NCBI GenBank assembly: GCA_963726255.1
Contig: CAVSBL010000002.1
Location: 128,001-192,000, forward strand
DNA: 64,000 nt
Origin: Candidatus Bathyarchaeota archaeon
GTDB lineage: Archaea; Thermoproteota; Bathyarchaeia; 40CM-2-53-6
Reading direction: 5' to 3'
Part shown: piece by piece, positions 1 to 9,025 of the stretch
Layout: each line of letters opens with the position of its first letter
How positions within the stretch are numbered: position 1 is the first letter of the stretch
Notes under the pieces: model-generated
Database searches by the model: none
Told to the model about the DNA's origin: nothing
What the model saw: the letters and a program-made list of their open reading frames with translations, nothing else
Program-made: the position numbers and the translations under genes

Positions 1-307
1 GTATAGGCGAGGTGTTTTCAATCGCAAAGCGCAAAAATTCCACCCACCAGTAGGCTCACCCACGCTCGTCGCCGCAACGCAGGTTTGCAGCACGTGTGGG
101 AATCTTGTGCCGAAAGGCGCATTTTGTGAAAAGTGCGGCGCGCCGTTGGAAATGCCCGCGGCTTCATCAGACGAAAAAGTATTCGATTACATCGTGAAAC
201 ATGAAGGTGTCATATCATTAAGCAAGGCTTCATCCGATCTCGGAATTCCTGTGGGCGAACTCAAGGAAATAACGGAGCGGCTGAAGAGTCAGGGGCGCCT
301 GACCTAA
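1..307 (+). CDS. 3' end of a protein with a C-terminal zinc ribbon and winged-helix-like domain (5' part outside window)
   Basis: Frame is open from the window edge; CSTC...CEKC zinc ribbon followed by DEKVFDYIVKHEGVISLSKASSDLGI...LKSQGRL helix-turn-helix pattern; TAA at 305-307. Confidence 0.7.
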   Translation, partial: YRRGVFNRKAQKFHPPVGSPTLVAATQVCSTCGNLVPKGAFCEKCGAPLEMPAASSDEKVFDYIVKHEGVISLSKASSDLGIPVGELKEITERLKSQGRLT

Positions 308-705
308 AAGAGCGAGAAGGGGGAACGGGCCTGCTGCTCACTCGCAACCGCGTATTGTCCGAGTGGAGCGCCTAGTTTGGGAGCTAATCCCCAGTAACAT
401 TCTGTGCAGAGGCTTAGAGCCCCGTATTGCCTGTTACAGGCTGCGCAAATCGACCTGCCGCATCTTGAACATATGAACGATGATGGGAGCTCAGAGTGAT
501 AGTAGCAGCTTCCCTGTCTTTGGCCCTGTCTTGAAACGTACGTGGACGGAGCGATTGGAGCGACCGGAGTTGGTTTCATGGAGGGAGTTAAGGGCGATCG
601 CACTTCAACCTTCACAGGTGGTCCACGGGAAACCATCGCACCGCATTTGAAACAGTACTTTGCATCCCCAGAGTTGGGTGAGCCGCAAGCCGGACACATC
701 GACAT
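304..705 (-). CDS. Soluble zinc-ribbon + B-box-like zinc finger protein
   Basis: CPAC...CFKC ribbon, Pro-rich linker, CYYH-x8-CSRC-x4-CAAC-x9-CTEC; likely start ATG 705 rather than 738. Confidence 0.75.
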   Translation of the reverse strand: MSMCPACGSPNSGDAKYCFKCGAMVSRGPPVKVEVRSPLTPSMKPTPVAPIAPSTYVSRQGQRQGSCYYHSELPSSFICSRCGRSICAACNRQYGALSLCTECYWGLAPKLGAPLGQYAVASEQQARSPFSLF

Positions 706-861
706 GCTGAAATCCCAACATCCATTGGCATCAAGCATTTCTTAACGGTTGCTTAGGGCGGAAAGGGTTCGTCCATCCCAATTCGGCGTGAAATGTGGCA
801 ATCCATGGGAGTTGGAATGACCCGCGTGCAAAAGTGTGACACGGTTATTACAAAATTCACA

Positions 862-2103
862 CTATGTAAGCCTTAGAATTGATTCGTGAAACTCTCCGTT
901 CTTGTCTTCGCCGAGAACTCTGAGATAGTCCCCCCGGGCGATACCCTTTCCTAGCCTTGAATGCCCGTCAAGTAGTCTTGAACCCTCTGAAGTTTCCGCT
1001 AGGACGTTCAATGTTCCGGCTTTGATTTTGGTGTGATGGCGGATAGTTCCTTCCAAACTCTCCTTCGAACTATGGGCAACCTCGAACGGCAAATCAGCCC
1101 GTTGGGCAGGTTCTCTAGTCGTCCCTTCCTTTCCGCACACGAAGCATTTCTCACCACGTTTCAAGTCAATCGGGGTGTACCGATTATTCTTCAAATCCAT
1201 GAACAAGACAGATCTGAGGGGTTGACCGCTGGTTCCAGGCCATTTTGCGTTCGCCCGGTATTCCTTCATCCCTAGGATCAGCTTGATTGTTTCCTGGGCA
1301 AGTATTGATGAGACCAGTGAAATCGTCGTTGCAAAGGATGGAACGGCCTCCTGCTCCAACGGTGCATCACATGGGTTTCGTAAGCCAACGATCTTAGAGT
1401 ACTGGTTGGGCGGAAACATGCATACAGGGCACGCATCGTCGGGCGGTAGATAGACATGTACTCTACCGTTCAGCCCGGTGATTCCCCCGTCAACTAATGG
1501 GATGGAGTATTTTCTGCAAATCTGAGTTAGGAAAATTCGCGAGACGACATTGTCGAGCCCGCAAACAACTACGTCCGAATCCAAATAGAACTTCAGAGGC
1601 ATCTTCTCGAGGTCGCCCCTGAAGGCAATCGTCTGAACGAAAGGGTATTTTCTGTGGAGGTTTCCTGCCAGAACCTCGGCCTTATTCCGTCCTAGGTCGT
1701 TTTGTTGAAAGAGCACCATGCGGCTAACGTTAGACATTTCGACAATATCCCGGTCTACAATGAAGACTCTGCCGACTCCTAACATGGCTAGGTTCTTGGC
1801 CACCTCGTTCCCGATGGCGCCGGCCCCAGCGAGTAGCACCGATGAATCCCTTATTCTCCGCTGGCCTTCTGGCCCCCAAACGAGCAAGTGTCGCGCCCAA
1901 AGGTAGTCAACGGTCACTTTGCCCTTGATTTTCGACAGTCGGCTTTGTTCCGGGAGGAGTTTGCCGCCTGCCAGCAGATTGGTGAGATCTGGTTCAATGC
2001 CTAGTTTCTTGCAAATTATTTCCTTGACGTCCTTCACCGTCTTGTTTGGGTTCAGCTCCACTTCGAGCTCTTTGTAGGAAGGGAGCGAGGCTCTTATGCG
2101 CAT
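862..2103 (-). CDS. E1-like ubiquitin-activating enzyme (ThiF/UBA) with N-terminal ubiquitin-like domain
   Basis: GAGAIG nucleotide-binding motif, DRDIVEMSNVSR, GLDN, CPVC and CFVC zinc pairs, candidate catalytic Cys in RNPCD; N-terminal TVKDVKEII...LLAGGKLL pattern; ATGA overlap with E2. Confidence 0.92.
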   Translation of the reverse strand: MRIRASLPSYKELEVELNPNKTVKDVKEIICKKLGIEPDLTNLLAGGKLLPEQSRLSKIKGKVTVDYLWARHLLVWGPEGQRRIRDSSVLLAGAGAIGNEVAKNLAMLGVGRVFIVDRDIVEMSNVSRMVLFQQNDLGRNKAEVLAGNLHRKYPFVQTIAFRGDLEKMPLKFYLDSDVVVCGLDNVVSRIFLTQICRKYSIPLVDGGITGLNGRVHVYLPPDDACPVCMFPPNQYSKIVGLRNPCDAPLEQEAVPSFATTISLVSSILAQETIKLILGMKEYRANAKWPGTSGQPLRSVLFMDLKNNRYTPIDLKRGEKCFVCGKEGTTREPAQRADLPFEVAHSSKESLEGTIRHHTKIKAGTLNVLAETSEGSRLLDGHSRLGKGIARGDYLRVLGEDKNGEFHESILRLT

Positions 2104-2696
2104 CAAGAAGACGCTCGTCGTGCCCGTCCAGGGATATCGAACCTAACTATGTCATCTGCGCCTAAAGATTTGGCCAATTCGGGGACAGGGACTACGTTGA
2201 AGCGGACAATATCGTTGGCTTCCTTATTCGTCGGCCTAGCTTTCGTCATCTTGGGAAATCCGTAGGAGCGACAAACGCCTGCTGCTTTGAGCGCCCGGGG
2301 GTTATCAAAAACACTCTGAGGGTTTGGATCCGTCAGAAGGTAATGTAACGCGTTGACGACAGATACGAGTTTCAGCCTGGGGTCCCATTTTTCTCCGAGT
2401 ATTGAAACGCATACGGCATTCGGTATTTTCGGGACTATGTTTGGATGGGCGATTTCCGTAAGCCAGGTAGCCACGGGTGGCTTCAACGGGTATTCTGGGG
2501 GAATATCAAGTCTGAAGCGGTGCCAATTCGTGTAATCCGTGAAGGGCCAGACTCCCTTCTCGGACAGCTTCATGACTTCCCCTTTCTCGCAGCGAATGAG
2601 CCCTTCGAATTGAGTAGGTGGGTCGTCGATGGCAGTGATTGTAGGGAACTGATGGTTGAGCAGGCTCTTTTCCTTCAGCAGCAACGAGACATCCAA
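2103..2696 (-). CDS. E2 ubiquitin-conjugating enzyme (UBC fold)
   Basis: IPPEYPLKPP, HPNI, catalytic Cys in AVCVSIL, W-x-P, LLTDPNP: the canonical UBC signature set. Confidence 0.93.
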   Translation of the reverse strand: MDVSLLLKEKSLLNHQFPTITAIDDPPTQFEGLIRCEKGEVMKLSEKGVWPFTDYTNWHRFRLDIPPEYPLKPPVATWLTEIAHPNIVPKIPNAVCVSILGEKWDPRLKLVSVVNALHYLLTDPNPQSVFDNPRALKAAGVCRSYGFPKMTKARPTNKEANDIVRFNVVPVPELAKSLGADDIVRFDIPGRARRASS

Positions 2697-2707
2697 ATCT
2701 AGCCAGC

Positions 2708-2950
2708 CTACCCGCCGATGATGTTGTATGGCATGAGTGCAAGCTGAGCATTTTCAGGAATGCCTAATCTTGCAACGGTGGTACTCTCGTCTAGTATCGC
2801 GCCTCCATACATGAGAGCCACGGTGCTCGGGTCAACGTTGAACGATTGGCAGACCTGTTGCTTTATTTCCGCAACTGTATGGTCTGGGATTACATCGATC
2901 TCCGCTAGGCCAGTCTGGGGGCCGATGGGCGCTTGGACGAACAGTTTCAT
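2708..2950 (-). CDS. Ubiquitin-like modifier with exposed C-terminal diglycine
   Basis: MKLFV...TVAEIKQQV...LMYGGAILDESTTV...IIGG-stop aligns by eye with ubiquitin; GGAGGTGA 10 nt upstream of ATG 2950. Confidence 0.92.
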   Translation of the reverse strand: MKLFVQAPIGPQTGLAEIDVIPDHTVAEIKQQVCQSFNVDPSTVALMYGGAILDESTTVARLGIPENAQLALMPYNIIGG

Positions 2951-3160
2951 TTGTCGTGTTTCACCTCCACTCATGCTGGGCCTTCATTTTCGCAGATGAG
3001 CTTAAACTGTCTTGCTATGAATCGGTTGGTGCGTGAAGGTAAGGTCCTCGGCCCGGGCGGCTCTTGCTGGGTACATGGGGTGTATTGTGAGGCTGGGAGG
3101 CCGATTTGGTCACCTTCCGTTCCGGAGTCTTCGTGTAGCGTCGTGGTCTTCATATTCATT

Positions 3161-4315
3161 TTATTCAGCCAGCTGCGGTGCGGAACCCTTTGAACCGCGA
3201 ATGATGAGTCCGATTGAAGCGACCTCAATCCACAACAGTATTGATCCGATGGACAGTCTATCAGCAAGACCTGCGTACGGGGCGGAAATCGAGACGAGGC
3301 CGAGGACACCCAGGGTAAGCGCGATTGGTAGCATTACGATACTGAAACGGTCGTAGCCTTTCCAACGTGGGTCGAGACGGAATTGTAGCCAAAAGAGAGC
3401 AATCGCTGCAAGCGAGAAGAATGCAATAATTCCTGTGATGACTAAGTGCAGCATGCCCAATACAGCGAACGGAGGACTGGCGGTATAATCTTGCGGGAAA
3501 AGAAAGAGAACCAGGCCCCCAGCGCCTGCGGCGACTAGGAACGCCGAACCCCAAATGTGTCTGGCTTCTTTCTGGATTCCATAGTATAGACCAACCGCCA
3601 GAAGGATCAAGCAAACATCGTAGAAGGCGAAAAGAGGCACCATTATGACTTGGTTAGGAGCACGTGAAGAGAGAAGAGTACTCACCGTCTCGCTATAGTG
3701 TGAGTACCCAGGCCACAAGAAACCGCCAATCAAGACGGCGGCGATATAGACAATAGGACCAACGGCTCCGAAGATTCCAAGTACGCGTATCCCGGAATTA
3801 GACTGCTTCACTTCGACTGTTGGTATCGCAGCAGGAGGCGCCGCTCTTGCCTCGGGCCGAACCGCCGCCGACCGCACGGTGTAGACTGTAATTCTTTCAC
3901 CAGGTATACGGACGGCTTGCCCACTCGAAGGCTCTACGCGAAAGAAGCCTACATCGCCGGTCGAGGCGTCTACGACCATTCCAGAAATGAGGGTTGAAAA
4001 CTGTTGGAGTACTGATTGCGTGGCGATGTCTGTTTGCGAGAAGAAGAGCCCACCATGGGTGTGTGAGTGGTACCAGCCGACAATATTGCCCTTTATCCGG
4101 CCGGTCACAATTCCGTCCGCAATTTCGGCCAACGCTTTCGATGAGAGGATTGCCCGGTGCGGCTCGGTGGCGGATTCACCAGTGACTGAGTCTTCGATTA
4201 TTATGGTATTGTCTTGAAACCGCCCTATCAGTACGCCGATTATTTCATTCTTAGTCGTGCGCGCAGCCCGGACTATTTTATCGTTAACGGGCTTCGCTAT
4301 GCTCACGTAGGACAA
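3161..4315 (-). CDS. JAMM/MPN+ (Rpn11-like) isopeptidase fused to a DUF998-like multi-pass membrane domain
   Basis: EIIGVLIG and GWYHSHTHGGLFFSQTD (E...HxH-x7-S-x2-D); C-terminal half has about six hydrophobic segments and PGYSHYSETVSTL. Confidence 0.88.
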   Translation of the reverse strand: MSYVSIAKPVNDKIVRAARTTKNEIIGVLIGRFQDNTIIIEDSVTGESATEPHRAILSSKALAEIADGIVTGRIKGNIVGWYHSHTHGGLFFSQTDIATQSVLQQFSTLISGMVVDASTGDVGFFRVEPSSGQAVRIPGERITVYTVRSAAVRPEARAAPPAAIPTVEVKQSNSGIRVLGIFGAVGPIVYIAAVLIGGFLWPGYSHYSETVSTLLSSRAPNQVIMVPLFAFYDVCLILLAVGLYYGIQKEARHIWGSAFLVAAGAGGLVLFLFPQDYTASPPFAVLGMLHLVITGIIAFFSLAAIALFWLQFRLDPRWKGYDRFSIVMLPIALTLGVLGLVSISAPYAGLADRLSIGSILLWIEVASIGLIIRGSKGSAPQLAE

Positions 4316-4370
4316 AGCCTACACCAAGAAACCGGAAGGAGACAAAAAATTGGGAATGATTATTGTGCCG

Positions 4371-5144
4371 CTAGCGTCCTAGCATGCCGAGTATTCCACC
4401 CAGCACGCCCAGAACGAATCCGGCCACGAAGCCACCGCCGATCAACAGGCTCAAGACCGCAAGTGGAAAGACGACTATGCTGCCTATGGTTCCGTATCCT
4501 AGTAGCATCAGTATTGACCCGATTACCAGTATGAGCCCGATTATCGCTCCTATAGCGAACGTCAAACTCGCCGGGCCAACAGCTGGCAACCAGAAGAAGA
4601 CGCCTGTCCATAGAGTGTAGAAGCTCGGTGAAAGCAAAGCTGCTGCGTTAAGTATCACAAGTATACCTGCGATCATTGCTAGTATGAAGCCCCAGAGCGC
4701 TCTCGGGGGAGCAGGTTGGTAAAGCGGGGGCAATGGTCCCATGAAGGGAGCCGGCGCTGCCATTGGGGGTGGACCGTAGGCGGGTTGCATAGGTGGCATT
4801 TGCATCGATGGCATTTGCTGTTGTGGAGCTGCTACCATCGGTACTACGCCTTGGTAACATTGCGGACAGAGTACAAGGTCCATGTAGGCCTTCGAGTCGT
4901 CGCGGCAGATTGCTCTTCCACAACGGTTGCAAACATAGACGGCGGGTAGGTTAGGGTGATAGTAACATTGGCCAGGTGCTGGAACCCTGATCGGGCTGCC
5001 AGGGCTGACAGGTGTTACAACGCGGACTGAAGGGACTGGTTTGAGCATGGGTCCTGCTGCGCCTGCGAGCGATGAGCCACAGCTTGAGCAGAATGCTGCG
5101 TCGTCGCGGTTGTTGTAGCCGCATGCTGGGCATTTTCTGACCAT
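4371..5144 (-). CDS. Zinc-ribbon + B-box-like finger + Pro-rich linker + C-terminal membrane domain protein
   Basis: CPAC...CSSC, CYYH-x8-CNRC-x4-CRDD-x9-CPQC, PPM/PAP-rich linker, 3-4 hydrophobic Gly-rich helices; AGGAGG upstream. Confidence 0.8.
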   Translation of the reverse strand: MVRKCPACGYNNRDDAAFCSSCGSSLAGAAGPMLKPVPSVRVVTPVSPGSPIRVPAPGQCYYHPNLPAVYVCNRCGRAICRDDSKAYMDLVLCPQCYQGVVPMVAAPQQQMPSMQMPPMQPAYGPPPMAAPAPFMGPLPPLYQPAPPRALWGFILAMIAGILVILNAAALLSPSFYTLWTGVFFWLPAVGPASLTFAIGAIIGLILVIGSILMLLGYGTIGSIVVFPLAVLSLLIGGGFVAGFVLGVLGGILGMLGR

Positions 5145-5560
5145 TTTCCTAATTAGCCTCCTTTAGTTAATTTAACTCGGAAATACGCTGCCGTCGTCAA
5201 CGCACTTAAGCGTTTGCTTAACTATTGGCAAATTGGTGAATGATAAAAGCGCAATAATACCATTTTTTAACGCAAAACGTTGTCACTGGGTCTAGAGACC
5301 CCGTTCTCTTGTTACTGGTATACCTGTAATAGGGGTTTTTCACTAATGACACCATGTAGTTCCGTTTAGAACGCTTGTCACTCAGAAGAATGTCCGATCG
5401 CCTAGTCGCCCAGCGAGTTATCCTTCGGAGACAAAGTTCTCAAGAACTGAGTAAGGTTCTATCAACCTTGTCGTTATTCTACACGACTTCTCTTCAGAAA
5501 TGCCGGGTGTCTTCTCAGCACATATTTAGCGAAGTTGTGTATAGGGCAGCCCGCTCGAAG

Positions 5561-5669
5561 GCCCCGGTGGCTCAGCCTGGTAGAAACAAGACAACGCCAA
5601 AAGCGCCGCCTTGGTAACGAACAGACAAAGAGGCGAAGGTCGTGGGTTCAAATCCCGCCCGGGGCTCCA
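5561..5669 (+). tRNA. tRNA-Thr(GGT) with two introns (22/23 at 5584-5601; 37/38 at 5617-5630)
   Basis: Acceptor GCCCCGG/CCGGGGC, T discriminator + CCA, T-arm GTGGG-TTCAAAT-CCCGC, anticodon loop TT-GGT-A|A; BHB helix TGGT/GCCA restores D-stem GAGC; one C27-A43 mismatch. Confidence 0.85.
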
Positions 5670-6583
5670 ACTTCTGTCAGACCGTCAATGGGCCGGATTC
5701 TGACCCATCTGCGACCTTGTTTTTCATAGAGGCGTCTCCATTCGATAGCGGCTCGTCGTGCGTCATATGACTCTAGTAGGCGGAGGGCGACGGACATCTT
5801 CTCGTGCTTTCTTTCCAGTCCGAACCCGATGACTTCACAAAATCGCTTTTGATCCAGCCGGCTCGAAATGGTGAGATGATAACATCGACGTTTGCTCCAC
5901 ATTGGCTTTCGCTTTCTCTCTTGGAAGATTCTTGAACGTATGCCGAACCGCGTTTCTAACAATCCTTGGATGTACACCAAAAGCCAATGCTTAGTGTTGA
6001 CCAGGACGACATAGAGGGCGAGATTACGAACAATCTCAGAGGTGCTAGATGATCTTGTGTAGACTGAAACTACTGGCGAGCCTTCGGCGTCCGCAAATCC
6101 CCTTATGAACTCGGAGGGATAGACACCTGTAGTTTCCCGAATTCTTTGCCAATCTGAGAGGAATTCAAAAAGCAATCTGCTCCAGAATCTAACTACAAAG
6201 AATCCTTTCTTATCGAAGAAGGGCAGCTTCTTTTTTCCCAAGACAACGCTCGCGCAAGTTGCTACAGTTTCGGCGAATTGCCGATCTCTCACCCTCAATC
6301 GCAATTCATAGTGGAATGCACTGCTTTTGATAAGGGCACCATCGCCGAGAAAGGCGCCCGCAACATAGCTCAATGAAGTAGAAGGACGAAGGTCTGGATT
6401 CGTGCAGCTACCAAAAGGGGAGTTTATTCCACGTAACCAATTGTACACAGTGGGACATGGAAGTCCCAGCAGCTTGGCAATCCGAGTGTGATCCATGCCT
6501 CGCTCTCTGTTTAGTTCTAGCACAACCGGGTATGCAGCCACCCTCTCAGCCAGCGAAATCCGCCTGGACGTTTTGACTGGCAT
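5648..6583 (-). CDS. Free-standing double-motif LAGLIDADG endonuclease with N-terminal HTH
   Basis: Motifs YVAGAFLGDG and FIRGFADAEG; HTH pattern HTRIAKLLGLPCPTVYNWL; late TISS...FCEVIGF block typical of DOD endonucleases. Confidence 0.9.
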   Translation of the reverse strand: MPVKTSRRISLAERVAAYPVVLELNRERGMDHTRIAKLLGLPCPTVYNWLRGINSPFGSCTNPDLRPSTSLSYVAGAFLGDGALIKSSAFHYELRLRVRDRQFAETVATCASVVLGKKKLPFFDKKGFFVVRFWSRLLFEFLSDWQRIRETTGVYPSEFIRGFADAEGSPVVSVYTRSSSTSEIVRNLALYVVLVNTKHWLLVYIQGLLETRFGIRSRIFQERKRKPMWSKRRCYHLTISSRLDQKRFCEVIGFGLERKHEKMSVALRLLESYDARRAAIEWRRLYEKQGRRWVRIRPIDGLTEVGAPGGI

Positions 6584-6669
6584 GGATAAATGTCCAGTAG
6601 CTTTGACAGATGTTGCCGGTCATTAGTATGAGAGCTTAGTGAAAGTGTTCTGAGATAATCGCCTGACTT

Positions 6670-6697
6670 GTGGGTTCAATTCCCGCCCGGGGCTCCA
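6670..6697 (+). repeat. Duplicated 3' end of tRNA-Thr(GGT) (att-like site)
   Basis: 28-bp copy of 5642-5669 with one mismatch in the T-loop. Confidence 0.92.
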
Positions 6698-6967
6698 GCT
6701 AAACTCAAACTCAGCGTGTCCAATTACTCGTCGGTAATGTGCGGGGTTTTCGGTTTTTCTTGTGTTCGCGCGGGCTTATGTCATTCGACACCTAACGACA
6801 TGTACCTTGTCTGAACGGTCGGCTGACCTGCTAGGCGCTAACTGCGCGGGCTCGATGGTATCGGAGTCGTTCCACGCTATCGTAGCAGGATGAGAAGAAT
6901 GAGTGGTTATTTGTGATACGAACTCAAAGAAAAGAGTTCGCGAAGACTTGAAGGCTTTCGTCTGTGC

Positions 6968-7057
6968 TTAGTGCGCTGACTTTGCGTGTGCTTCAAGTTC
7001 TTCCCTTGTTTTGAAGAACATTTTGCAAGCAGGGCAAACATATGTTCCTAGAGACAA
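6968..7057 (-). CDS. 29-aa stand-alone C2H2 zinc finger microprotein (below ORF-track cutoff)
   Basis: MSLGTYVCPACKMFFKTREELEAHAKSAH; GGTGAG before TTG; TTTAATATAT TATA-like box at about 7091-7100. Confidence 0.75.
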   Translation of the reverse strand: MSLGTYVCPACKMFFKTREELEAHAKSAH

Positions 7058-7165
7058 TCAACTCACCAGTTGAGAATTACAGGCGCTTGGATATATTAAA
7101 TGGCTTGAATGCTTCAACCCAAGAAAAGGTAGATCAATGGACCGTGCTAGGCCTAACTTGATTTG

Positions 7166-7573
7166 CTAACGAGGCTTCTTTCGCTTGTCGGTGCCGAAGA
7201 GCTCAATCCAGATTCCGTCCGGGTCCTTTACGTAGGCTAATCTCTCGCGGCCATTAGAGAAGGGTGCAACTGCTCTCTTAGCCCCCTTTGCGATGAGCAT
7301 GGCATAAGTTCGGTCAACATCATCGGCCCAGAACCCAATATGGTCCATCTCCGTTCCTGGCCGGTACCGTTCGTAAAACTTGTTCCGGGACGGATAGTAG
7401 TTGAGTTCCAACCTCTGCGCCGATCCGGGCTTCTTGAGGTGGACGAAGACTCCTCCGTGGTGCATAGTTCCCCTGTGAATTACCTTCATGCCCAAGACTT
7501 TCGTGTAGAACCGAAGCGACCGGTTCAGGTTGCTTACTCGAATGCCAAAGTAAACGAAGCGCATAGGTACCAA
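7166..7573 (-). CDS. VOC/glyoxalase family protein
   Basis: GIRVSNLNRSLRFYTKVLGM, LELNYY, DHIGF, DPDGIWIEL. Confidence 0.9.
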   Translation of the reverse strand: MVPMRFVYFGIRVSNLNRSLRFYTKVLGMKVIHRGTMHHGGVFVHLKKPGSAQRLELNYYPSRNKFYERYRPGTEMDHIGFWADDVDRTYAMLIAKGAKRAVAPFSNGRERLAYVKDPDGIWIELFGTDKRKKPR

Positions 7574-7687
7574 CCATTAATTCACCTACTTGGTTATGTA
7601 AGAAGCTTGCCAGCGTGGGACGGTAAATGACGCGCCGGAGGTTTGAAAAGGCGCAAATGAAAGTTGAGGGGCTGAGGGAAGCTTGGC

Positions 7688-8911
7688 TTGGAAGGTTCTT
7701 TCGCGGAATCAGTTCAGCTGGCTAGTCAACTGCGCGACCTGAGCGATGAGCAGCTGAAAATTCTGGAACGCGTGGATGAAGCGTGCAAGGAGCTTTACCT
7801 TTCCGAGTTCGAACATTACATTGCACACAAGTATAATCCCGACACGCCAGAGACGCTGAAGAAATACAATCTCATGGGCCTCACAGTTTCCCAGGAGTAT
7901 GGAGGAGTCGGAGCCGACTCGCTCACGTGGGCACTGGCGCTTGAACGTTTCGGGCAGATTGGGTTGAGTGTGGTTACGTTCGTTGACGTCCACTGCCTCC
8001 TAGCCTCACTGGCAATTCAGCAATGGGGCAACGAACATCTGAAGAAGGAATACCTCGTTCCGGCAGCTAAGGGGCAGAAGGTTCTAGCTTATGGTTTGAC
8101 AGAGCCCGAAGCAGGAAGCGAACCAACCTCACTCAAGACCAGCTATGAGGAGCGTGATGGCGGCTACGTTCTCAACGGCACCAAATACCTCATCTCGAAC
8201 GGGTCCGTCGCCGACGCGCTCATAATTTTCGCTTACCCGAAAGGCAAGAAGGAAGGCATGTCAGCCTTCGTCGTCGACTCGAAGTCTGAAGGCTTCTCCG
8301 TTGCCATGCACCTCGAAGAGAAAATTGGCCTCTTCACTTCGGACACGGCTATGCTTGAAATGTCCGACGTACGCGTCCCCAAGGATAACTTACTGGGACA
8401 GCCTGGGAAGGGGTTGCATGTTGCCTACTCGGCGCTTTTGAACGGAAGAATTGGGATAGGGTCTGGATGCGTTGGCATCATTGGAGATTGTCTTAACTCG
8501 GTAACGGAACGTGCAAAGTCGCGCGTGCAACACGGGAAGCCCATCGGCAAACACCAATTGATTCAACGCCACATCGCAAACATAGCGATGAACCTCGAGA
8601 TGGCAAGATGGCCAACGTATTATGCTGCTCTCCAGAAGACGAGGCTTGACTCGAACCCTGCCGACCTAGAGCTTAGAAACAAGGTCGACCTTCATTCGGC
8701 CATAGCGAAGCGTGTCGCTTCTCGACTGGCGTACGAAAGCGCCGACTTAGCGGTTCAGGTCTTCGGCGGTTTCGGTTATTCCCTGCTCTCCCCCGTTGCC
8801 AGGCATTTCTGCGATGCTCGGGTGGCAAGAATCTATGAAGGGACGGACGAGATCATGGAGCTCAAGATAGCTTCGTTGATTCTGGGGAAAGGTTTCGAAG
8901 CGTACAGCTGA
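7688..8911 (+). CDS. Acyl-CoA dehydrogenase
   Basis: AYGLTEPEAGS, LNGTKYLISNG, RVQHGKPIGKHQLIQ, QVFGGFG, IYEGTDEI. Confidence 0.95.
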   Translation: MEGSFAESVQLASQLRDLSDEQLKILERVDEACKELYLSEFEHYIAHKYNPDTPETLKKYNLMGLTVSQEYGGVGADSLTWALALERFGQIGLSVVTFVDVHCLLASLAIQQWGNEHLKKEYLVPAAKGQKVLAYGLTEPEAGSEPTSLKTSYEERDGGYVLNGTKYLISNGSVADALIIFAYPKGKKEGMSAFVVDSKSEGFSVAMHLEEKIGLFTSDTAMLEMSDVRVPKDNLLGQPGKGLHVAYSALLNGRIGIGSGCVGIIGDCLNSVTERAKSRVQHGKPIGKHQLIQRHIANIAMNLEMARWPTYYAALQKTRLDSNPADLELRNKVDLHSAIAKRVASRLAYESADLAVQVFGGFGYSLLSPVARHFCDARVARIYEGTDEIMELKIASLILGKGFEAYS

Positions 8912-9025
8912 CTGCTCATTCAACCACCCTAGCTGTGAGAATAGTGAAAAACGAGAGCGATTACCAAGACTCCCTATTGTACCCCGCCTGCCCACCAGTC
9001 TCGGGCAATGGCCTTATCGATAGGG

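Follow-up and report, generated by a model that had tools for sequence, protein, structure and literature searches.

A B-box-type ubiquitin gene cluster with two membrane-anchored members, conserved in Bathyarchaeia

Archaeal ubiquitin operons are the main evidence on the origin of the eukaryotic ubiquitin system, and those described so far, in Caldiarchaeum and Asgard archaea, come with RING E3s and a soluble Rpn11-like enzyme. We analyzed a stretch of 64,000 nucleotides from the genome of a Candidatus Bathyarchaeota archaeon (assembly GCA_963726255.1, contig CAVSBL010000002.1, positions 128,001 to 192,000 of the forward strand), hereafter the window, which contains a cluster of genes for ubiquitin (Ub), its activating (E1) and conjugating (E2) enzymes, a JAMM-type deubiquitinase and two proteins in which a zinc ribbon (ZnR) is joined to a B-box-type finger. 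This cluster is real and conserved, a variant of the archaeal ubiquitin cassette in a soil or wetland archaeon. All six open reading frames (ORFs) lie on the minus strand, with the boundaries that a first-pass annotation of the window had given them, and a Pfam search agrees with its picture of six co-oriented genes of these domain types:

4371..5144, minus strand: membrane finger protein, ZnR-B-box with four transmembrane (TM) helices, 257 aa (Pfam, alignment A4, AlphaFold2 [AF2] model)
3161..4315, minus strand: JAMM-DUF998 protein, 384 aa (Pfam JAB and DUF998)
2708..2974, minus strand: Ub ending in Gly-Gly, 88 aa (Pfam ubiquitin)
2103..2696, minus strand: E2, 197 aa (Pfam UQ_con)
862..2106, minus strand: E1 with a ubiquitin-like (UBL) domain, 414 aa (Pfam N-terminal ubiquitin-like domain and ThiF)
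304..738, minus strand: soluble finger protein, ZnR-B-box, 144 aa as the longest ORF (Pfam, alignment A1, AF2 model)

The domain E-values of the four core genes range from 1e-10 to 5e-51 and, taken with the conserved synteny described below, are far beyond chance. The Ub stop codon (TAG, 2710-2708) is followed after a gap of 11 nt by the E2 start (TTG at 2696), just as the first-pass annotation had noted, but the ATGA overlap that it had reported between E2 and E1 needs correcting. This junction reads TCTTCTTGATGCGC and contains TTGATG, without ATGA, so that E1 starting at the TTG would overlap E2 by 4 nt (TTGA) and E1 starting at the ATG by 1 nt (TGATG). The host is a 2.42-Mb metagenome-assembled genome (MAG), estimated to be 98.5% complete and 9.3% contaminated, and the cluster sits on its 2.36-Mb contig. 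Pieces of all six genes, with 90-99% likeness, are found on metatranscriptome contigs from four runs in three studies (the membrane finger gene in 4/4 runs; JAMM, Ub and E2 in two each; E1 and the soluble finger gene in one each), and one contig spans the Ub/E2 gap; parts without coverage carry no meaning here, and contigs from RNA libraries do not prove transcription.

The core enzymes are intact and eukaryote-like, their nearest solved relatives coming from eukaryotes and Caldiarchaeum, and Pfam bears out the eukaryote-like cassette of Ub, E1, E2 and JAMM that had been proposed from the ORFs. The Ub ORF (Pfam ubiquitin, 40.9 bits) matches ubiquitin chains and C. subterraneum Ub (6fj7) in a comparison with solved structures, and it is the sole stand-alone match to PF00240 in the genome, where the profile otherwise hits only the UBL of E1. 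Since the protein ends in ...IIGG directly at the stop codon, no C-terminal processing is needed. Its translation probably starts at the second Met, M9 (nt 2950), because the Ub ORFs of relatives are 80-88 aa long and match from residue 2-9. The residues aligned with K48 and K63 of ubiquitin are Ala and Glu, and chains of those types are thus not expected. Moreover, the last Arg/Lys lies 19 residues upstream of the C-terminal end (…VAR followed by LGIPENAQLALMPYNIIGG), so that trypsin would leave on a target lysine a remnant of 19 residues instead of di-Gly, which makes tryptic di-Gly profiling unsuitable.

E2 (61.9 bits) is the only UQ_con match in the genome, and the solved proteins nearest to it are eukaryotic UBCs (~1e-12). 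In an alignment of 21 sequences, the H84-P85-N86 motif and C96 are invariant, and both loop 4 (Y69-P70-L71) and loop 7 (W104-x-P106) are conserved, with P70 and P106 invariant. Beyond the catalytic core, E2 carries a conserved C-terminal extension (residues ~150-197, nt 2103-2250, minus strand) with invariant F166, P172 and F186 and with two short strand-like motifs, RFNvvPvP and DIvRFxI, that resemble the V-K-V-x-V linker of the finger proteins. As for E1, its N-terminal UBL (28.0 bits, aa ~1-66) precedes a ThiF domain (173.6 bits, 72-283) and a C-terminal tail of ~80 aa. Two CxxC pairs (C226/C229 and C321/C324) and C246, the candidate catalytic cysteine, are invariant in 27 sequences. The best solved relatives of E1 are eukaryotic Uba1/Uba7 (1.6e-35), ahead of ThiF (1.8e-21). 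A search against NCBIfam returned no model above cut-off, the top rows for E1 (ThiF, MoeB and SAMP-activating E1) all being far below theirs.

The deubiquitinase is tethered to the membrane. Its JAMM domain (aa 1-~130, nt ~3926-4315; Pfam JAB, 43.5 bits), in which the motif residues E24, H83-x-H85, S93 and D96 can be read from the translation, has the C. subterraneum Rpn11-like protein 6fjv as its best solved relative (E 1.1e-11). The rest of the protein, which has ~6 hydrophobic segments in all, matches DUF998 (PF06197; aa ~174-374, nt ~3194-3796) at 75.2 bits against a cut-off of 30, over profile positions 2-181 of 184. Among the loci compared, this DUF998 form is confined to the window and its nearest relatives; most other JAMM proteins are 500-550 aa long and consist of the JAMM domain, one TM helix and a β-rich Ig-like outer domain, and the sole locus from another order encodes a protein of 212 aa in total, with a JAMM domain and one TM helix. 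Judged from these architectures, membrane anchoring of the JAMM is conserved although the type of anchor changes. Two further arrangements were seen in L046-L048, L054 and L056 (also L102-L107, L104). One family has lost the JAMM domain and kept a TM-plus-outer-domain protein; in L056/L104, a 156-aa JAMM gene stands by itself and the next gene encodes a zinc-ribbon-TM-outer-domain protein, with the ribbon in the place of the JAMM.

The two finger proteins contain the following elements:

aa 5-22 of the membrane finger protein, minus strand: zinc ribbon (alignment A4)
aa 35-43 of the membrane finger protein, minus strand: conserved linker K35-P-V-P..V42-V43
aa 60-96 of the membrane finger protein, nt 4857-4967, minus strand: B-box
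aa 148-255 of the membrane finger protein, nt 4380-4703, minus strand: TM module, after a Pro-rich linker
aa 15-32 of the soluble finger protein, nt 643-696, minus strand: zinc ribbon
aa 78-114 of the soluble finger protein, nt 397-507, minus strand: B-box

Both ribbons have the spacing C-x2-C-x3-N-x6-C-x2-C, with a conserved Asn, and in both proteins the binuclear finger has eight ligands spaced C-x2-H-x8-C-x2-C-x4-C-x2-C/D-x9-C-x2-C. In the soluble protein, the true start of which is probably M12 or M14, the ligands C78, H81, C90, C93, C98, C101, C111 and C114 are invariant across 50 sequences (A1). In the membrane protein, C5, C8, C19, C22, C60, H63, C72, C80, C93 and C96 are invariant across 52 sequences (A4), while C75 and the sixth ligand, an Asp (D83), are kept in at least 90% of them. 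The conserved linker between ribbon and B-box reads PVKVxVKSPL in the soluble protein and KPVPSVRVV in its membrane counterpart. Pfam finds the ribbons readily in the membrane protein (DZR 32.2 bits, Zn_Ribbon_1 30.7 bits) and in the soluble one (zinc ribbon, 26.0 bits), but scores their B-boxes at 17.3 and 18.8 bits, below the gathering cut-off of 24.1 bits for zf-B_box (PF00643). Scores of 20.6 and 21.2 were obtained for the two genes in a six-frame search, still under that threshold, which is exceeded by relatives in L128 (28.0) and L134 (25.3) and by one paralogue in the same genome (28.0).

The C-terminal half of the membrane finger protein is hydrophobic, and AF2 places long helices at residues 148-169, 192-214, 218-236 and 240-255. 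The model of the soluble protein shows a compact finger, with a pLDDT of 93-95 over residues 81-110 and of ~80 over the ribbon, with disordered linkers. The solved folds nearest to the finger are cross-brace fingers of the FYVE, Rab-effector, PHD and RING types (Z 3-5.7) and those nearest to the ribbon are RanBP2/NZF fingers (Z 3.0-3.6; Pfam Zn_ribbon_RanBP, 14.3 bits), values that are in both cases too weak to name a family. Foldseek, run with the soluble finger model against the PDB, had no hit that reached E ≤ 0.001, and among its listed chains a B-box occurs in 7vsq alone (E = 2); B-box chains were also absent among the best 50 rows of the VIA structure comparisons of the finger models, which excludes nothing. 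The finger homologues that we found are close relatives only, publicly named "hypothetical" or "zinc-ribbon domain-containing protein," and the relatives in the ESM Atlas form unnamed "hypothetical protein" clusters, mostly from Bathyarchaeota. Two members of the cluster, the membrane finger protein and the JAMM, thus carry TM segments, as the first-pass annotation had it, and the anchoring of both is kept in relatives.

The arrangement extends well beyond the window. In 26 loci from across the order and from one genome outside it, the genes run ZnR-B-box-TM, JAMM-x, Ub, E2, E1, ZnR-B-box and then a convergent gene, and this is maintained at E2 identities down to ~55%. A protein search detected E2 in 67 of 401 sampled Bathyarchaeia genomes, nearly all belonging to the order of the window and one to another order, and in none of the genomes of two large families (0/104 and 0/71). 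We also took a census of 59 Bathyarchaeia loci, which overlaps the 26-locus set and draws on related, not independent, genomes, and based the counts on loci with enough flank: upstream of E2, 41 loci extend for 4.5 kb or more, and downstream, 49 extend for 2.4 kb or more. Of the 41, 40 contain the membrane finger gene and 34 a JAMM (with a TM segment in 31), and of the 49, 44 contain the soluble finger gene. The flanking zinc-finger and JAMM genes are therefore syntenic with Ub-E2-E1, a point on which the first-pass annotation had let its proposal stand or fall.

Within the family of the window, E2 was found in 20/22 genomes of genus g1, 10/10 of g4 and 0/22 of g2. A profile built on the membrane finger protein (A4) has strong, mostly whole-profile matches, two to eight per genome, in g1 (22/22) and g4 (10/10), and none in g3 (0/3) or g5 (0/1); in the E2-less g2, its matches are weak (13/22 genomes) and the six rows listed, from five genomes, are all confined to the TM module. 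This pattern of A4 and E2 across genera represents few evolutionary events, not independent trials. A4 hits the genome of the window five times. Beyond the two cluster genes, it detects another ZnR-B-box protein, a further protein in which a B-box is joined to the TM module of the cluster type, and the TM module that closes a 794-aa protein. The whole system in this genome comprises one Ub, one E1, one E2 and about five finger proteins.

Relatives of the cluster also occur in distant classes. Among 13 loci from outside Bathyarchaeia, several of which run into a contig end or are of other subtypes, four have a B-box gene and six a JAMM with a TM segment. In Thermoprotei, both L128 and L129 encode a Ub-E2 fusion and E1, accompanied in L128 by a ZnR-B-box-TM protein of 156 aa and a JAMM-TM protein of 595 aa, and in L129 by a JAMM-TM protein and a ZnR-B-box protein that has two TM helices; in Thermoplasmata, L134 and L136 each have JAMM-TM, Ub, E2 and E1 together with three B-box-TM genes. 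Fusion of Ub to the N terminus of E2 (229-291 aa) was seen in L127, L128, L129, L137 and L138, which come from Thermoprotei, Thermoplasmata and one bacterium-binned contig, and L138 has a separate Ub in addition. A phylum-wide search with an E2 profile gave weaker matches (~1e-17) in whole families outside Bathyarchaeia, for example in 17/17 and 24/24 genomes.

The cluster resembles that of Caldiarchaeum in having the order JAMM, Ub, E2, E1 and small binuclear zinc-finger protein, with a second, membrane-anchored finger protein nearby. In C. subterraneum itself, the operon consists of rpn11l, ubl, e2l, e1l and srfp. In the Caldiarchaeum-type locus L179 (genome G423), a divergent, soluble JAMM of 202 aa, Ub, E2 and E1 are followed by a 75-aa RING protein (zf-RING_2, 39.6 bits) and, 1.2 kb beyond it, by a protein of 250 aa in which four hydrophobic segments precede a C-terminal RING (zf-RING_2, 38.1 bits). 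This pair of a small RING and a 4-TM RING is found in four of the seven Caldiarchaeum-type loci examined. The published C. subterraneum cluster and the RING spacing of its srfp protein, as given in the available portion of Nunoura 2011 (PMC3082918), agree with L179, and an excerpt of Fuchs 2018 (PMC6043591) speaks of "a second E3 protein" adjoining the C. subterraneum operon. The two B-box genes of the window hold positions equivalent to those of the small RING and the 4-TM RING. Since the second Caldiarchaeum-type RING protein is itself a 4-TM protein, a membrane-anchored E3-like partner is common to the known system and not new here. The idea of a variant that adds and removes Ub at the membrane, put forward in the first-pass annotation, is partly supported: it holds for the cassette, its two membrane members and their synteny, but a membrane E3-like partner is not unique to this cluster.

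What sets the cluster apart from the RING type is the B-box type of its fingers and its membrane-tethered deubiquitinase. The fingers here are of B-box type with an extra N-terminal zinc ribbon, whereas those of Caldiarchaeum are RING-H2; the membrane finger gene lies upstream of the JAMM and its TM module is C-terminal, whereas in L179 it lies downstream and the module is N-terminal; and the JAMM is co-oriented with the other genes and membrane-tethered, in contrast to the divergent, soluble enzyme of L179. E2 is 36% identical to its L179 counterpart, E1 has an N-terminal UBL, and Ub ends at GG without a pro-peptide, unlike that of Caldiarchaeum as described in the available part of Hennell James 2017 (PMC5654768). 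Of the components of a Caldiarchaeum-type cascade, the cluster thus possesses Ub-GG, E1, E2 and an Rpn11-like JAMM, but not the small RING-H2 E3. No RING was found elsewhere either. A search of the 98.5%-complete genome with zf-RING_2, Prok-RING_1, zf-C3HC4 and a profile of the Caldiarchaeum-type RING gave nothing above cut-off, and neither did the RING families of Pfam against the six cluster proteins. A few sub-threshold rows in the genome (e.g., 16.1, 18.7 and 17.7 bits) were taken as chance. While the first-pass annotation was right that there is no RING-family match in the cluster, and this holds for the genome too, its framing as a cluster without a RING gene misleads, since candidate B-box E3s fill the RING positions.

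Whether the equivalence reaches down to residues can be approached by comparing registers, and the finger/RING and E2 loop comparisons that follow are register arguments, not measurements. When the B-box alignment is compared with a RING alignment in hhalign, six of the eight ligands are in register (19% probability, E 0.0012). If the first ligand pair is matched too, I30 and W58 of srfp have Y80 and Y105 of the soluble finger at their ligand-relative positions; the former Tyr is invariant, the latter kept in at least 90% of sequences, and the membrane paralogue has an invariant Tyr at both equivalent positions (Y62 and Y87). According to the available part of PMC5654768, I30Q in srfp abrogated in vitro ubiquitylation and W58A significantly impaired it, and the E2 residues mutated there, PY67/68 and PS103/104, align with P70-L71 and P106-R107 of the E2 described here. 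A complex prediction for E2 (1-160), the finger protein (38-125) and two zinc ions received a score of 0.00 and a mark of 0.32 and, being without controls, speaks neither for nor against binding.

We lean, with modest confidence, toward the view that the cluster encodes a complete, eukaryote-like Ub conjugation and deconjugation cassette of B-box type, which would work on the cytoplasmic side of the membrane and employ the B-box proteins as E3-like factors. This view builds on the observed domains, catalytic residues, gene order and membrane anchoring and on the equivalence in position of B-box and RING genes. Ub would be produced ready for use (…GG-stop). E1 would adenylate it, bind it in a thioester, for which C246 is the candidate catalytic cysteine, and hand it to C96 of E2. 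The two ZnR-B-box proteins, one soluble and the other held in the membrane by its four-helix module, would serve as E3-like specificity factors, their fingers binding E2~Ub and directing transfer, and the Rpn11-like JAMM, tethered to the membrane by DUF998, would take the tag off. Substrates may be membrane or membrane-proximal proteins, for which tagging could lead to turnover, extraction or signaling, and the cluster might thus play a role in the quality control or sorting of membrane proteins.

Several points weigh against this view. By sequence, the fingers would be assigned to the B-box family and not to RING, and the copies in the window score under the B-box cut-off. The hhalign match to the RING profile, with a probability of only 19%, is no proof of homology, and the position of the RING "linchpin" (R69 in srfp) is occupied by an aromatic residue in both proteins (Y115 and Y97). 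The fold matches of the models are weak (Z < 6) and cannot tell a B-box from FYVE, PHD or RING; the binding and ligase roles of the fingers are predictions drawn from register and position. Some lineages keep Ub-E2-E1 without the soluble finger gene (5/49) or without the JAMM (7/41), and 9 of the 13 non-Bathyarchaeia loci have no B-box gene in the stretch examined. Finally, the genomes counted are related, not independent, and the genome of the window has an estimated contamination of 9.3%, though the cluster sits on a 2.36-Mb contig.

The fingers may instead not be ligases. In such an E3-independent system, which comes near to what the first-pass annotation had in mind and which we regard as possible but rather doubtful, E2 would transfer Ub directly and the ZnR-B-box proteins would be substrates, Ub receptors or regulators; in one variant, Ub could be bound by the N-terminal ribbon in the manner of an NZF, and the Lys-bearing linker could be a site of modification. 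This would agree with the lack of any RING-family match in the cluster or genome, with a linchpin position that is neither Arg nor Lys and with the conservation of the PVKVxVKSPL/KPVPSVRVV linker. It would also agree with the properties of the ribbon, whose C-x2-C-x3-N-x6-C-x2-C spacing is accompanied by a model nearest to RanBP2/NZF fingers, including the NZFs of TAB2 and Npl4 solved with ubiquitin (Z 3.0-3.4), and which has its like on the convergent gene, on the split JAMM partners and on the 794-aa surface protein that shares the TM module. However, NZFs of the subtype that binds Ub do so via a Thr-Phe pair, which is absent here (G-S in the soluble copy, where the consensus is G-K, and G-Y in the membrane copy), and the Z values of the ribbon model are low. 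Nor would an E3-independent system lead one to expect B-box genes in the positions of the two Caldiarchaeum-type RING genes, conserved aromatics at the E2-contacting positions of the srfp register, or an E2 that retains the loop residues required for E3-dependent transfer in the characterized archaeal system.

A role in defense has to be considered because the cluster, like bacterial Bil and CBASS Cap2/Cap3, is a compact operon of Ubl, E1, E2 and JAB peptidase, and might be an antiviral module of that kind which tags the proteins of invaders. The distribution is patchy, with E2 in 67/401 Bathyarchaeia genomes and absent from the sister genus g2 (0/22), the presence of the cluster in classes as distant as Thermoprotei and Thermoplasmata suggests transfer, and the outer domains of the JAMM are variable. 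We nevertheless find this explanation improbable. In contrast to the bacterial systems, the enzymes are closer to eukaryotic proteins, their nearest relatives being eukaryotic and from Caldiarchaeum, there are zinc-finger and membrane components, and the chromosomal context is stable: within the order, the cluster occupies the same place beside the same convergent neighbor at E2 identities down to 55-60%, unlike a mobile defense island. Moreover, PADLOC models gave no match for Ub, E2 or either finger protein, and the weak rows that they did produce concern E1, via a generic adenylation domain (at most 61 bits, with BilD at 31.5, compared with 173.6 for Pfam ThiF), and JAB (16.8 bits). We give hardly any credence to a further explanation, in which Ub and E1 would be a sulfur-carrier or SAMP/Urm1-like pair for cofactor or tRNA thiolation and the other genes incidental. 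The best NCBIfam rows for E1 point that way, all far under their cut-offs, but Ub and E1 have between them a translationally coupled E2 of UBC fold with HPN motif and Cys, the cluster includes an Rpn11-like JAMM, E1 is nearer to Uba1 than to ThiF, and NCBIfam has no model above cut-off.

A bolder extension of the B-box cassette reading is that these fingers constitute an ancient, RING-independent class of ubiquitin E3s in Bathyarchaeia, Thermoprotei and Thermoplasmata and form, together with the outer-domain deubiquitinase, a transmembrane ubiquitin switch. We think this unlikely, but its consequences deserve mention. The ubiquitylation of proteins on the inner side of the membrane would then be governed by events outside the cell or in its envelope, and both the link between B-box and ubiquitin and membrane ubiquitylation of the kind performed by MARCH proteins and in endoplasmic reticulum-associated degradation (ERAD) would predate eukaryotes, outside the Asgard lineage.

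In eukaryotes, the B-box domains of TRIM/RBCC proteins are binuclear cross-brace fingers that work with the ubiquitin machinery, and the ligase activity of B-boxes is limited; in contrast to TRIM/RBCC proteins, the B-box here has no adjoining RING or coiled coil. Hrd1/Doa10 of ERAD and the MARCH family are membrane-embedded RING ligases, with an E3 finger at the membrane that faces the cytosol, but the TM module described here has no detectable sequence relation to them. The prokaryotic B-box has been tied to the folding, stability and proteolysis of membrane proteins (PMC4506424, in its available part, citing Burroughs, Iyer and Aravind 2011), a role that fits the ZnR-B-box-TM architectures seen here; that statement, as it stands there, makes no link to Ub/E1/E2/JAMM operons.

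Comparison with Asgard clusters (L141-L148) reveals E2 and E1 homologues side by side in these too, and a JAMM beside E1 in L147 and L148. Three Asgard loci match the finger profile weakly, in its zinc-ribbon part (E ~1e-4) and without the B-box. In L141, L142 and L144, E1 is followed, ~1 kb downstream, by a gene for a protein of 214-237 aa that closes with a zinc ribbon spaced like those of the cluster. Some Asgard ubiquitin clusters are linked to genes of the ESCRT (endosomal sorting) machinery, whereas the Cdv/ESCRT-III genes here (L192:4241-8698, G000:C2:654241-658698) lie ~524 kb from the ubiquitin cluster. Besides CdvA (63.7 bits), they comprise two or three CdvB/Snf7-like genes, for which the Pfam scores are weak, a Vps4-like AAA ATPase that contains MIT and Vps4_C, and a helix-turn-helix (HTH) gene of the AsnC type. 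A search of the genome for EAP30 (ESCRT-II) gave no match.

Our literature search found no description of a B-box-type archaeal ubiquitin cluster or of a membrane-tethered Rpn11-like enzyme, with the proviso that "Cluster III" in Supplementary Fig. 1 of PMC5654768 may depict such clusters. The available part of a 2019 preprint (10.1101/763623) reports homologues of signature proteins, a set that includes the ubiquitin system, in MAGs of Bathyarchaeota and Thermoplasmata, and in the portion of Grau-Bové et al. at hand (PMC4327156) only RING types are treated and the B-box is never mentioned. The cluster shows that archaea abundant in soil and sediment have a second design, a widespread one, with B-box proteins at the E3 positions, a membrane finger protein and a membrane-tethered deubiquitinase that usually has an outer domain. 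Should the fingers prove to be ligases, the tie between B-box and ubiquitin known from TRIM proteins would be pre-eukaryotic and membrane-bound ubiquitylation would not be a eukaryotic invention. The small size of the system makes in vitro reconstitution feasible.

Additional finger genes lie elsewhere in the genome. Three more B-box genes (G000:C2:303644-304060, 866551-866955 and 897087-897638; L059, L062 and L063) were found; in one product the B-box is accompanied by DUF131 TM helices, another is a soluble ZnR-B-box protein, and the remaining one has the cluster-type TM module but no zinc ribbon. The 794-aa surface protein (L195:3659-6043, minus strand; G000:C2:741659-744043) has a signal-like N terminus, Ig-like repeats, a TM helix and a cytoplasmic zinc ribbon, and it ends in the four-helix membrane module that it has in common with the membrane B-box protein. 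Its 387-aa neighbor (L195:6312-7475, minus strand; G000:C2:744312-745475) likewise ends in a cytoplasmic zinc ribbon.

Two features flank the cluster in the window:

2..307, plus strand: C-terminal end of the convergent gene (last 101 codons; zinc ribbon and HTH-like tail), which opens the window
5561..5666, plus strand: tRNA, 106 nt (Rfam, 38.8 bits), which bounds the cluster on the other side

The convergent gene, in full (L186:6631-8307 = G000:C2:126631-128307), encodes a protein of 558 aa with a Flg_new_2 match (41.4 bits) and a weak C-terminal zinc ribbon. It keeps its place beside the cluster in nearly all Bathyarchaeia loci and may be an accessory part of the system. On the other side, ARAGORN reported no tRNA in positions 1-9000, and the tRNA found by Rfam probably contains an intron. 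The final part of a 311-aa ORF (5648-6583, minus strand) with HTH and LAGLIDADG_3 (50.9 bits) domains overlaps the 3' end of this tRNA.

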